Below are positions 3,918 through 8,142 of a stretch of DNA of 64,000 nt, in pieces. Below the pieces are notes generated by a model that did not search any database, was not told where the DNA came from, and worked only from the letters and a program-made list of their open reading frames with translations. How positions within the stretch are numbered: the stretch's first letter is position 1; each line of letters starts with the position of its first letter. The stretch is from an uncultured Anaerolineales bacterium (lineage in GTDB: Bacteria; Chloroflexota; Anaerolineae; Anaerolineales; UBA11858), in contig CAZRUS010000009.1 in assembly GCA_964603385.1 (NCBI GenBank), positions 9,279 to 73,278 of the forward strand. The letters run 5' to 3'. The translations under genes were made by a program, and so were the position numbers.

Positions 3918-5429
3918 TCAGAACAATCCTCCCCGGTCCTTGAGCAGCCGATAGAGCTCATTCAGAGACCCTTCTGTTTTCCCCTGCATCTCCTCCAGCT
4001 CCTGCAGCATTTTTTCTGCCTTCGGGTCATCCTGTAGATCCTGCAGATTGATGCGCACGTTGTATCCTGCGCTGTGGAAGGCGGCCTTGGCCAGGTTGAC
4101 CCCGGAGGCCGCATCCGAAATGGCATTGAGATTGCCCAGCTCCGCTGCCCGCACGCCCAGCTCCATCACCCGGAGCGCTTTGCGGGCCGCCTGCAGGGGC
4201 ACAGCAGCAGCCTGCAGCGTTGCCTGATGAATGTTTTCTGCTCGCTGCGGATCCTCTCTGTCCAATCGGTAAGCAGCCATCAGCTCCTGAAAAGCCGCAG
4301 CATCACGCTCTACCCCTTTGGAAAGTTCCCTGCGCAGCTTCTCCGCCTCATTGAGCACATCGCTCATCTCCCGCTCCACGGCAGCGTATTTCTTCTTGCC
4401 CACGGTCAGACGGGCTACCATGGCCACCAGCCCCGCCCCCATGGCCCCGGCGTAGGCTGCTGCAGACCCCCCTCCGGGGGTGGGTGTTCCCGCTGCCAGG
4501 GCATCCAGGAAATCCTCCTCCTGTTCCTCCTGCAGCGCGGCGGAAATCTTCTGCTCCAGCACCTGCTCCGGCTCAAACATATCCATCTGCGTGTACCAGA
4601 CGGCAGCATCCACCATGGCCTGCTGGGGAATCAACCCCACCAGCTCGCTGTGGCTGATCCCCACCCCATAACGCTCGGCTTCCCGGCGGATGGTTTCCAC
4701 AACCAGGGCTAGCGGAGTCTTCTTGAAGTTGGTCAGATTCATGGAGACCTGCGCCTGGCCGTCCACCAGCATGCCCAGCGCCTTGACATAGCGCAGGCCG
4801 CCGGAAGAATGCCGCACCGCGCGGGCGATGGCAGCGGCAATGCTTTCATCCTCCGTGGTCAGGTAAACATTGTAGGCAATTAAGAATTCCCGGGCCCCAA
4901 TCACTGTGGCCCCGGCGGATCCCAGCTCTGAAGGTCCCTGATCCGGCGCCCGCTCCGGCACCGTACCGATCTCCTCTTTAAGCTGCTCGTACTGTCCCCG
5001 GCGGATGACTTCCAGCCGCCTGCGCTCTGGGCGAAGGGCTGCCTGTTCGTAGAAAAAAATCGGGATCTGCAGTTCCCTGGCAACCCGCTCCCCCAGCCGG
5101 TGGGCAATTTCCACGCACTCCGCCATGGTGATTCCGGAGATGGGTACAAAGGGAACCACATCTGTGGCTCCAATGCGCGGATGCTCTCCCTGGTGGGATT
5201 CCATATCGATCAACTCCGCAGCCGCGGCGATGGCCTGAAAAGCACCTTCTTCTACTGCTTCCGGTGTGCCCACAAAGGTGATCACACTGCGGTTGTGATC
5301 GGCATCCATATGATGATCCAGCACATAGGCGCCTTTCACCGCGGCGATGGCTTTGCTGATCGCTTCCACCACCTCCGGTCGGCGTCCTTCAGAAAAGTTG
5401 GGAATGCATTCCACAAGAGGCGAAATCAT
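3918..5429 (-). CDS. ftcD: Bifunctional glutamate formimidoyltransferase / formimidoyl-THF cyclodeaminase
   Basis: LVECIPNFSEGR, DADHNRSV, HPRIGATDVVPF and QVSMNL (FTCD N-domains), fused to PTPGGGSAAA cyclodeaminase domain. Start set at ATG 5429. Confidence 0.95.
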   Translation of the reverse strand: MISPLVECIPNFSEGRRPEVVEAISKAIAAVKGAYVLDHHMDADHNRSVITFVGTPEAVEEGAFQAIAAAAELIDMESHQGEHPRIGATDVVPFVPISGITMAECVEIAHRLGERVARELQIPIFFYEQAALRPERRRLEVIRRGQYEQLKEEIGTVPERAPDQGPSELGSAGATVIGAREFLIAYNVYLTTEDESIAAAIARAVRHSSGGLRYVKALGMLVDGQAQVSMNLTNFKKTPLALVVETIRREAERYGVGISHSELVGLIPQQAMVDAAVWYTQMDMFEPEQVLEQKISAALQEEQEEDFLDALAAGTPTPGGGSAAAYAGAMGAGLVAMVARLTVGKKKYAAVEREMSDVLNEAEKLRRELSKGVERDAAAFQELMAAYRLDREDPQRAENIHQATLQAAAVPLQAARKALRVMELGVRAAELGNLNAISDAASGVNLAKAAFHSAGYNVRINLQDLQDDPKAEKMLQELEEMQGKTEGSLNELYRLLKDRGGLF

Positions 5430-5668
5430 AACAGGTTCCTTATATTTTATAACTCGGCAACGGAGCATGAATTATCTGCCTGAATTATACCGAAGTTTAG
5501 CCCCCGGTGATCAAGCACCAACCGGCCGCTGCCGTGGTGAAGCAGCTTTCTTCTCCTACCCTCCATCGGGGCTGCTAGACAGGGGCAGAAATCATTGTCA
5601 TCCCTGCCTGAAATCTTGATCAAACCCACATTAACTGTATCTTTACAACCTGTTCAATCTTCCCTGTC

Positions 5669-7270
5669 ATGAAGATGATAACTTTAAGAGTACTATCCGC
5701 GGGTGATTATCCTCCCGGAAGAGTCTCCTTGTTTAATTCACAGCAGTCGATATCATGGCCACCAGAACCAGAGTGCCAAACACCCCACCTGCAGAATCAA
5801 GCTCCTACCAGGCCGTTTGAAGTTCTGCTTCCAGATTTTCAAGACTTAACGCTGGACTCCATGTTAATGGACCTTCCCTCCTACGCCCGGGCCGTGGATC
5901 CCGGCACATCCGGGCAGAAAGTCGCGGATTTATTTTCAGAGGATCTGCTTGTACCCGGAGTCATCATTCTGAATAAAGGTGTCTTTCTGGGCGTGATCTC
6001 CCGGGATATGTTCTTTGAGCGGACCGGCAAGCTGTATGGGACAGAAATCTTCCTGGTCCGTCCCATTTGGAAAAGCTCAACACCCTGCGCCATCAACCGC
6101 TGGTGCTGCCGGAAACCATTCTGATCTCACTGGCTGCCAAAGGGGCGTTGAGCCGGGAAGGGGATCGGATTTACCAGTCAATTGTCATAGAAAAAAAGAT
6201 CTGACCTTTCACCTGATCAGCGCACTGATGCTCTTCATGGCCCAGAGCCACCAGCTGATCACCCTCCACAACCAGCGCCTCTACACAGTTGAGTCCGGCC
6301 AGAAAATCAGCCGCAAAGCAGCTGTGCTGCGCTTTCTCAAGCAAGTCGGCATCAAAGACCACTTTACCCTGTCCATGCTCCTCAAACGCCACTCTGTGCG
6401 CTGCGACCACTGTGGAAAACTGGTTAACTATTCCCTTATCGATGGTGTCCGCACCTTTCCCGTTCTCAATCAGGGCGTCATTGTTGAGGAAAAGATGGGC
6501 ACCAGAACCAACCGTCTATACATCCGCCACCGCTGTCAGGACGAGCTTTGGGAGATCCCGGTTCACCATGACTCCAACCTTGAATATCGTTCCCAGCGGC
6601 CGGCCCGCATTGAAGAGTCCTATCTCTAAAAAAACCTTCAAAAAGTCACCGGATATGTCATGCCGGTGGGCAACGGGGCAGTTGGAAAAACCAGTCTGGC
6701 CCTTACCCTGCAGCATGACCAGCTGCCAACGGATTGGCAGGATCACCTCAGCCAGGTTCAAAAAACAGTCAACCTGGAATTTCAATACGTCACGGATAAA
6801 GTTTGAACTAACTCATCCCAGTATGACCTCCTGCACCAATACTTGATCCCCCCGGGCAGAAGGTATTTGAAGTTGACCCCCGCAGCCGATCCTTCGACCA
6901 GGTGCTGCGCATATATCAGCCCATCATCCGCCGGGTGGATGTGGTGCTGCTTTCTTATAAGGTACCCCAAATAGAAACCTTTCACGACCTGGAATACTGG
7001 GCGGAAAAGGTCTGCGAGATCAGCAGCGAGCAAACCAACTTGATCCTGGTGGGCACCCATCCTGATCAAAAAGAAAATCATCAGTTCACCCCGGAGAGCA
7101 TCGCGACCGGAAAAAAGTATGTCATCGAACTCATATAAGGAATCCGCTCCAGCTGGAAAGGTCACTGCACCTCCCTGGAGGTTTCCAACCTGAGTGGAGA
7201 AAATATCTCACATCTGCGCACCCTGATTTCCCAGGGTCTGATTCTGGCCGCTGGATATCCACTAAACTGA
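5669..7270 (+). pseudogene. Disrupted CBS-like / Cys-motif / Ras-Roc-like small GTPase fusion gene
   Basis: One continuous protein is recovered by restoring one base at runs 6071-6074, 6191-6197 and 6848-6856, and reading through in-frame stops 6627-6629, 6804-6806 and 7136-7138. P-loop GNGAVGKT at 6669-6692, then PPGQ, LVGTHPD and EVSNLSGENI. Final TGA at 7268-7270. True start uncertain. Confidence 0.75.
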
Positions 7271-7356
7271 GTCCCGGCAGTAAGCTGAGGGCAGATTGAA
7301 TAATTCCTGCAGCAGCCCTTCCTCTGTCATCTCAGCTGGTACAATGGCGGCAGGAT

Positions 7357-8142
7357 ATGAAACCGCAGCAGCTCCACGATCGAACTCAACTGGAAGCTTA
7401 TTTCCGCCGGAATCTATACCTGCACCTCTACAGCCTGGGGGATCTGGATGATTTCTACTGGCCGAACACCCGCTGGTACGGAATCAGCACAGCGCACGGG
7501 GTTGACCGGGTTGTGCTCATCTATACCGGTGGGGAGCTGCCGGTGTTGCTGGCTTTTCTCGATCCCGGGGCAGAGACAGCGGCTTACCTGCAGTCCCTGA
7601 TCCCCATCTTACCGGACCGATTTTATGCCCATCTCAGCCCGGGATTGAAACAATATTTCCAACCCGGATACCAGATCCAGGCTCACGGGCCCCATTACAA
7701 AATGGGCCTGCTCCAGCCTGAACAGCTGGGGCAGTTTTCCGGTAGAGAGGTAGAGCCCCTGTCGCGGGAAGATCAGCAGGAAATTATTCAGCTGTACCAG
7801 GAAAGCTACCCCGGAAACTGGTTTGATTCCCGCCTGCTGCAAACCGGACAGTACCGGGGAATTCGCCGGCAGGGCCGGCTGTGCAGTATCGCGGGTGTTC
7901 ATGTCTACTCACCCAGCTACCGCATTGCCGCGCTGGGAAATATCACCACGCACCCGGATTACCGCAATCAAGGCCTGGGGAAGAGCGTCACTGCTGCCCT
8001 GTGTCGGTCGCTGCTCCGGGAAGTGGATGCCATCGGGTTAAATGTGCGGCAGGACAATCCTGCAGCCCTGGCCTGCTACCGAAAAATCGGCTTCAAGGTC
8101 ACCGCCCGGTACGGAGAATATACCTTGCAGAGGCGGAAATAA
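7357..8142 (+). CDS. GNAT family N-acetyltransferase (FR47-like)
   Basis: C-terminal GNAT motif GNITTHPDYRNQGLGK...LNV..DN.AA..CY.KIGF. TACAAT at 7340-7345. Confidence 0.9.
   Translation: MKPQQLHDRTQLEAYFRRNLYLHLYSLGDLDDFYWPNTRWYGISTAHGVDRVVLIYTGGELPVLLAFLDPGAETAAYLQSLIPILPDRFYAHLSPGLKQYFQPGYQIQAHGPHYKMGLLQPEQLGQFSGREVEPLSREDQQEIIQLYQESYPGNWFDSRLLQTGQYRGIRRQGRLCSIAGVHVYSPSYRIAALGNITTHPDYRNQGLGKSVTAALCRSLLREVDAIGLNVRQDNPAALACYRKIGFKVTARYGEYTLQRRK

Follow-up and report, generated by a model that had tools for sequence, protein, structure and literature searches.

Members of the Ras superfamily are recognised by the motifs G1 (GxxxxGK[ST]), G2 (a Thr), G3 (DxxGQ), G4 ([NT]KxD) and G5 (SA[KL]) (PMC4316618). 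In prokaryotes, the MglA-MglB system joins a Ras-like GTPase to a Roadblock/LC7 GTPase-activating protein (GAP) (Wuichet & Sogaard-Andersen 2014, PMC4316618), and the Rup family comprises Ras-superfamily GTPases of unknown function, some of them from Chloroflexi, that are linked by gene context to signal transduction (PMC4316618). Apart from MglA, the prokaryotic Ras-like GTPases are almost wholly uncharacterised, and their GAPs and guanine nucleotide exchange factors (GEFs) are unknown (PMC4316618). In Myxococcus xanthus, a zinc ribbon of GltJ, with four Cys in ~35 residues, acts via MglB and does not bind MglA (PMC11135422). Here we describe a locus from an uncultured Anaerolineales bacterium, located within a 64,000-nt stretch of its genome (the window; all coordinates are positions in it). 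The genome, G000, is a metagenome-assembled genome (MAG) of 87 contigs and is 92% complete. We are confident that positions 5755–7270 of the plus strand are the dead remains of a two-gene operon, inactivated in G000, whose intact relatives encode a small Ras/Rab-like GTPase and a partner protein that carries a C2HC domain.

The intact module resembles MglA-MglB in that a single-domain Ras-superfamily GTPase adjoins a dedicated small partner gene, in that G3 is without its Asp (TVPGQ or GTPGQ in MglA, PPGQ here) and in that G4 departs from [NT]KxD, as it does in MglA groups 2 and 3 (PMC4316618). It differs in that the partner is always a C2HC protein and not Roadblock/LC7, and in that the GTPase family lies nearest to Rab and Cdc42 in the PDB by sequence. 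PF03259 had no match in the module flanks that were fetched; its matches in G000, G013, G014, G007 and G003 are on other contigs or ~200 kb away. With Rup, the module shares a small Ras/Rab-like bacterial GTPase without coupling to MglB. In Rup proteins, however, the G3 Asp is retained (DxxG) and the catalytic Gln is missing from group 1, whereas here the Asp is absent, the Gln is invariant and G4 is without Lys. The neighbourhood of Rup group 1 (a coiled-coil protein, an OmpA-domain protein, and a GGDEF protein or kinase) is also absent. GltJ provides a likeness in that its small zinc domain, ligated by Cys, belongs to a (membrane) protein acting in the cycle of a bacterial Ras-like GTPase (PMC11135422); we draw the parallel as an analogy only, as the domain described here has 110 aa, is of C2HC type with a predicted alpha/beta fold of its own, and does not involve MglB.

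In the window, the locus lies between two intact genes, as a first-pass annotation of the same DNA had noted. They are a formiminotransferase-cyclodeaminase-like gene (FTCD; 3918–5468, minus strand, 516 aa), which serves as the marker of the syntenic locus, and a GNAT acetyltransferase gene (7357–8142, plus strand, 261 aa). Between them the list of open reading frames (ORFs) gives only fragments. The first-pass annotation had joined these fragments into one gene and proposed a search for homologues; such a search yielded intact relatives. A six-frame search of 40 related genomes located the syntenic FTCD-GNAT locus in G013 and G014, which represent two further species of the genus. Each has two separate intact ORFs, one encoding a protein of 290–296 aa that ends in ...RPARIVESYV* and the other a GTPase of 215–220 aa, whose start codon is 8–20 nt before the gene 1 stop and in another frame. 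Logan contig L011 from a microbialite metagenome, also intact, is 94% identical to the window across the aligned ~2.9 kb and carries genes of 291 and 216 aa, followed by a GNAT gene of the same length as that in the window. Gene 2 of every intact relative overlaps gene 1 and begins with an ATG or TTG of its own that is out of frame with gene 1.

Alignment to these relatives defines the two remnants. Pseudogene 1 (5755–6629, plus strand) is what is left of a protein of ~291 aa with a divergent CBS pair and a putative C2HC zinc domain, and aligns from end to end with the intact orthologues in L011 (485–1360; P0003, 291 aa), G013 (290 aa) and G014 (296 aa). Its native start is the conserved ATG 5755 (MATRTR...), and the start at 5669 chosen in the first-pass annotation is probably fortuitous. 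Its native stop is TAA 6627–6629: that codon had been counted among the lesions, but the orthologues end in ...ESYV* at the matching place, and the locus is therefore made up of two genes. Pseudogene 2 (6622–7270, plus strand), recognised by the Pfam Ras model PF00071, is the remnant of a small GTPase of ~216 aa whose intact orthologues have 215–220 aa; its native start lies inside the 3' end of gene 1 and its native stop is TGA 7268–7270. The leader of gene 1 is altered as well. Upstream of gene 1, the window has 11 extra bases at ~5531–5541 and is without 15 bases after 5701 relative to L011, and the promoter/leader region has been remodelled too.

The two genes are also separate elsewhere in the family. 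Wherever the C2HC domain is encoded in the genomes (17 loci), a GTPase gene follows directly and overlaps the 3' end of the partner gene by 4–92 nt, and the two are fused in none. The partner has the CBS-pair form at five of these loci, while the other 12 encode a protein of about 207 aa with an N-terminal membrane segment of 3–4 helices instead; the N-terminus of the partner thus varies (CBS pair or transmembrane segment), and the C2HC domain and the GTPase are constant. No conserved neighbours were found beyond the pair. The module occurs in 16 of the 37 species of the genus and in none of the other sampled genera of the family or the 300 other genomes of the class; in the class-wide search of 300 genomes with a C2HC profile, only the window's own genome was matched. 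The C2HC/GTPase family is confined to Anaerolineales, and the pairing to some of them. The first-pass impression of a resemblance to Asgard archaeal proteins was not borne out, as there were no matches outside Anaerolineales and the partner is neither a Roadblock nor a longin protein.

Such patchiness, along with repeated loss, would be explained if the intact module were a mobile or defence-type accessory cassette and not a housekeeping signalling switch. The distribution just given is in line with that idea, as is the existence of further decayed copies. The base composition, whose comparison with the flanks had been proposed in the first-pass annotation, also fits. Four loci were compared (window 5755–7270, L011, L001 and L002). 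The G+C content of the module in the window is 0.52 against 0.57–0.60 in the flanks, a deficit of 5–7 points that is also seen in G013 and L011, with values of up to about 9 there; G014 has a module below FTCD but not below GNAT. Because the low G+C is shared by the intact copies of L011 and G013, it is not an effect of decay, and the pattern is consistent with a foreign origin or a distinct codon usage of the cassette. Against a mobile or defensive nature, however, PADLOC gave no match, no integrase, repeats or other mobile-element genes adjoin the module, the FTCD-GNAT synteny is stable in four lineages, and the input domain is typical of signal-transduction proteins. We therefore consider this explanation unlikely.

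Damaged copies of the module were also observed elsewhere. In L028 (3318–3970; G011, the Chloroflexota MAG CSMAG_2151), the GTPase gene has one in-frame stop (EIF*PTIHR), and Gly replaces the first zinc Cys of the partner. L027 (2700–3935; MFD03804.bin.3.292) carries a single frameshift in each gene, that of the GTPase falling just downstream of the P-loop. Both look like further decaying copies, although the frameshifts of L027 could be sequencing errors of that MAG. Fragments of the C2HC domain only, each with an internal stop, were found at G024:C67:30847-30981 (E 8e-14) and G016:C3:77537-77632 (E 5e-12); these suggest older relics and repeated independent loss within the genus.

The lesions in the window were defined by DNA alignment to the intact forms (alignments A1 and A3). 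Relative to L011 there are eight: one +1 and four −1 frameshifts, the loss of the gene 2 start, and the nonsense changes TGG>TGA and AAA>TAA. None of them is conserved in the relatives. The frames, homopolymer runs and stop codons described in the first-pass annotation are all where it had placed them, and its three frame changes (6071–6074, 6191–6197 and 6848–6856) are single-base deletions relative to the intact orthologues. The first of these (6070–6074) is the loss of a unique T beside an A4 run, AAAATGCTC having become AAAAGCTC, and is present in the X1, X3 and X2 contigs described below. In the second (6191–6197), AAAAAGCAG of L011 has become A7+G, so that neither deletion is a simple change in run length. 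The third (6848–6859) falls inside the G3 motif PPGQ, where C7 has become C6 (6848–6853); one haplotype of X2 retains C7. Two of the three stops that had been listed are real nonsense mutations. They did not originate by C>T changes from CAA or CGA as had been supposed: TGA 6804–6806 derives from the Trp codon TGG, and TAA at 7136, within 7133–7138, from AAA beside a Met>Ile change (ATG AAA to ATA TAA).

Three further lesions had been missed. A +1 insertion at about 5784–5787, where L011 has ACACTCC-CCTG and the window ACACCCCACCTG, means that the remainder of gene 1 is no longer in frame with the conserved start MATRTR...; the X4 contig has one base fewer at 5787. The start of gene 2 (6622–6624) has changed from ATG to ATC, and the same G>C substitution gives Val>Leu in gene 1. 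Finally, three codons into gene 2, an A8 run has become A7 (6628–6634), a position at which the X2 contig shows no gap. Searches of the G000 assembly revealed no second copy of either gene.

If the genes were intact in the organism, these frameshifts and stops would be sequencing or assembly artefacts of the MAG. The source is an assembly of many contigs, and, of the five frameshift lesions, three involve homopolymer runs (A7 6191–6197, A7 6628–6634 and C6 6848–6853). An independent assembly of run X1, from a microbial mat that is the probable source sample, nevertheless provided a Logan contig of 33.5 kb, with a word depth of ~34, that has no gap and 0 differences from the window over 5500–7400. 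Pieces of run X3, from the study of X1, match exactly across 5787, 6070 and 7136. Some of the lesions also recur in an unrelated study: on a haplotype that resembles the window, run X2, a marine metagenome, has the +1 at 5787 and the −1 at 6070 as well as A7 at 6628–6634. Homopolymer errors furthermore do not account for two nonsense substitutions, a lost start or the missing unique T at 6070, and the neutral dN/dS reported below, with its replacements of invariant residues, is limited to these two genes, the flanks being clean. Artefact is therefore very improbable, and the first-pass view that this is true pseudogenisation and not read error is upheld by the contigs of the three runs, which agree on the decay, as well as by the ratio omega of about 1.1.

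The presence of the lesions in several samples and studies means that the decay exists in natural populations, where it appears to proceed stepwise. The A8 run that X2 carries at 6190 keeps the frame of L011 and is plausibly an intermediate that preceded slippage to A7. In the 3' half of gene 2, a TAA form and an L011-like form (C7, ATG AAG) are both present in X2. The X2 contig is itself L011-like upstream of ~5640, where it has 6 substitutions in common with X4, and window-like in gene 1, including two frameshifts; it looks like a recombinant or intermediate haplotype (5500–5640 versus 5640–6213).

Some points weigh against inactivation as set out here. The ancestral state at 5787 would follow from L011 and the conservation of MATRTR, as G013 and G014 are too divergent around that position to be aligned. 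The L011-like haplotype of X2 is intact-looking in the 3' half of gene 2, and, as Logan contigs drop rare variants, a minority intact allele may be present in the source population.

Substitution patterns separate the window from its intact relatives. Differences were polarised by parsimony with G013 and G014 as outgroups, because dS relative to G014 is saturated; between the window and L011, dS is ~0.15 in both genes and in GNAT. On the window branch there are 5 synonymous and 17 non-synonymous changes in gene 1 and 4 and 15 in gene 2, which corresponds to a ratio of non-synonymous to synonymous rates (dN/dS, omega) of about 1.1 in each. The branch leading to the intact L011 has 5 and 5 changes in gene 1 (omega 0.32) and 7 and 3 in gene 2 (omega 0.13). 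For both genes pooled, the counts are 9 synonymous and 32 non-synonymous in the window versus 12 and 8 in L011 (Fisher p = 0.005). The flanking GNAT gene is under purifying selection on the window and L011 branches alike (omega 0.27). Changes on the window branch include invariant positions of the families (Y>N in MGxRxYR, P>S in YQP and L>P in GTHLD), and the C2HC part, with V>G, Y>N and D>A, likewise has omega of about 1. Both genes have been evolving neutrally in G000 since their inactivation. As omega is ~1 along the whole of the branch, back to its divergence from the intact lineage (94% identical), inactivation took place early on the branch and not very recently, which departs from the first-pass description of the gene as recently inactivated.

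These data also bear on whether the locus might still be expressed by programmed frameshifting, read-through or short products, such as those of ORF 6015–6629 or a P-loop fragment beginning at ATG 6660. The 110-aa C2HC region does remain an unbroken frame inside a 204-aa ORF. Expression of both proteins, however, would take five frameshifts, two stops read through and initiation at a non-ATG codon; no single frame gives the whole GTPase; the lesions are not conserved in relatives; and omega is about 1 in both genes, including the C2HC part. We regard continued expression as highly unlikely. Least credible of all, with practically no chance of being correct, is one decayed gene for a fused CBS/Cys-His/GTPase protein of ~530 aa, the ligand-sensing GTPase proposed in the first-pass annotation: the tail of gene 1 and the start region of gene 2 do share a frame in the window, parted only by TAA 6627, but that frame was itself created by the A8>A7 deletion, which moved gene 2 in line with gene 1. 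Encoding of the parts as separate genes, which the first-pass annotation had named as a refutation of its reading, is what the homologues show at the 17 genome loci and in L011, with no fused protein among the 35 partner or 155 GTPase clusters (both searches were length-limited) or, without a length filter, in the top 150 of 1319 profile matches.

With two decayed genes as the preferred reading, the intact orthologues were used to examine what the proteins would have been. The gene 1 family consists of 35 clusters (90% identity) of 220–303 aa from Anaerolineales, Longilinea or Leptolinea MAGs, every one labelled 'hypothetical'. The CBS-like nature of its N-terminal part, a suggestion of the first-pass annotation, was confirmed by structure prediction. 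The AlphaFold model of orthologue P0001 has a predicted local distance difference test score (pLDDT) of 86, its N-terminal ~140 residues form a CBS pair, and the order of secondary structure (beta-alpha-beta-beta-alpha, twice) fits. With the whole gene 1 model as query, the top 50 Foldseek matches in the PDB were all CBS-pair (Bateman) structures (E 2e-4 to 1e-2, probability 1.00, template modelling (TM) score by target 0.5–0.7), including CBSX1 (4gqw), OpuCA (5iip), CNNM2 and AMPK-gamma, which thus have the same fold as the N-terminal half of gene 1. The complex of the CNNM2 CBS pair with ARL15 (8f6d) shows that a CBS pair is able to dock a small GTPase, and offers a loose analogy. In the window, this Bateman-like sensor module, together with the helix after it (5858–6278, plus strand), is spread over three frames by the lesions.

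The gene 1 sequence differs from known CBS pairs in being too divergent for the Pfam CBS model: PF00571 reached 12.8 bits against a cut-off of 24 (E 0.16), and searches of Pfam and NCBIfam with read-through pieces and intact orthologues returned zf-BED, DUF6715, CBS and IbpB, all under the cut-off. An exhaustive profile search with gene 1 matched 1,319 representative proteins (P0044–P0185 among them), most of which share only the N-terminal module, followed by HisKA/HATPase, GGDEF/HD-GYP/GAF/PAS or SpoIIE domains. The CBS-like module is a widespread divergent sensor input that the Pfam CBS model misses, and, with ~1,300 representative kinases, cyclases and phosphatases carrying it, may merit a family model of its own.

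The C-terminal 110-aa C2HC domain (6297–6626, plus strand) is encoded in a single unbroken frame within ORF 6015–6629. The candidate ligand codons (Cys 6402–6404, Cys 6411–6413, His 6528–6530 and Cys 6534–6536, all plus strand) are invariant in alignments A2, A4 and A5, and the motif C-x2-C...H-x-C holds without exception in 35 + 11 sequences. The domain also has many Arg, Tyr and Glu positions that do not vary. The possible metal site suggested in the first-pass annotation is therefore supported in its Cys and His core, while of the 'HHD' that it included only the Asp is conserved. Modelled alone, with the window frame 6297–6626 as query, the domain has a pLDDT of 85. The model had no significant fold match in the PDB by Foldseek (best E 0.17, TM about 0.4), no PDB zinc ribbon was matched, and neither Pfam nor NCBIfam contained a matching family (Pfam zf-BED reached only E 0.09–0.12). 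We predict a new zinc-type fold and family.

The assignment of gene 2 to the Ras-type small GTPases, made in the first-pass annotation, was likewise confirmed (PF00071, E 1e-10 to 1e-13). The remnant in the window scores 39.6 bits (E 5e-10) and the orthologues 44.5–50.2 against a gathering cut-off of 21.6, while for the Roc model PF08477 the window has E 1.5e-5 and the cut-off of 27 is reached by one orthologue only (28.3). The family comprises at least 155 clusters of 190–260 aa, and its invariant motifs (40 sequences) are GxGxVGK[T/S], PPGQ, GTHLD and LEVSN. All are traceable in the window on the plus strand. The G1/P-loop GNGAVGKT (6669–6692) matches the canonical motif; G3 PPGQ (6848–6859) keeps the Gln, with the Asp replaced; G4 GTHPD (7052–7066) is a mutated version of the invariant GTHLD, the Leu>Pro change having arisen on the window branch, so that the 'THPD' read in the first-pass annotation is not the native form of the motif; and the family motif LEVSN (7175–7189) is G5-like. 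In G4, THLD keeps the canonical Thr and Asp, with His in place of Lys. A profile search of the PDB placed Rab12, RabX3, Rab21 and Cdc42 nearest by sequence, with no MglA entry among the top 60 matches. The family profile matched none of the other GTPases of G000 at E ≤ 0.01. The same genome has six Roadblock/LC7 (MglB-like) matches on C1, C2, C11 and C41, three of them clustered at 275–279 kb of C2, and other MglA-type small-GTPase systems are probably still intact in it.

The GTPase and its C2HC partner are a translationally coupled, strictly co-conserved pair in which the input of the partner is variable. The C2HC domain would be the cognate partner, regulator or effector of the GTPase; the CBS pair is absent from the membrane-anchored paralogues, yet the pairing with the GTPase persists in them, which makes the C2HC domain the constant partner. 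The N-terminus would then be an exchangeable input, either a CBS pair for sensing of a small ligand or adenylate or a membrane segment of 3–4 helices, that supplies a signal or a location, and the whole pair would act as a sensor-coupled GTPase switch, lost in G000. In Ras, the configuration of Gly12 and Gln61 works with an arginine finger that is provided in trans. The GTPase described here retains the equivalents of both residues, and the partner domain has invariant arginines (R52, R77 and those of the tail EYRSxRxxR), which is why a GAP-like role of the C2HC domain is favoured, with about an even chance of being right; GEF and effector roles are the alternatives. What tells against this picture is that the interaction of the two proteins, as well as the role as GAP, GEF or effector, is read from gene overlap and co-conservation only, and zinc binding from the invariance of four residues of ligand type.

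The pairing of a C2HC partner with a GTPase is not described in any paper of the library searched. On balance, and by a slight preference, we take the module to be an undescribed switch in which a Rab/Ras-like GTPase with PPGQ and THLD motifs is translationally coupled to a dedicated regulator of a new C2HC fold with interchangeable inputs, either a cytosolic CBS-pair ligand sensor or a membrane segment; it would join MglA-MglB and Rup as a third GTPase-partner system of prokaryotes, and the window would hold one of several independent losses in the genus. As GAPs and GEFs outside the MglA system are unknown, a strictly conserved, coupled partner is a direct candidate regulator, and one that is testable with two small soluble proteins. 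There is nothing unusual in the two pseudogenes; their intact counterparts form a variant of the prokaryotic small-GTPase systems that had not been described. For G000, the finding means that two accessory signalling genes are dead and are properly annotated as pseudogenes, not as fragments or a fusion, and the stepwise decay across samples provides a small natural record of the loss of the module.

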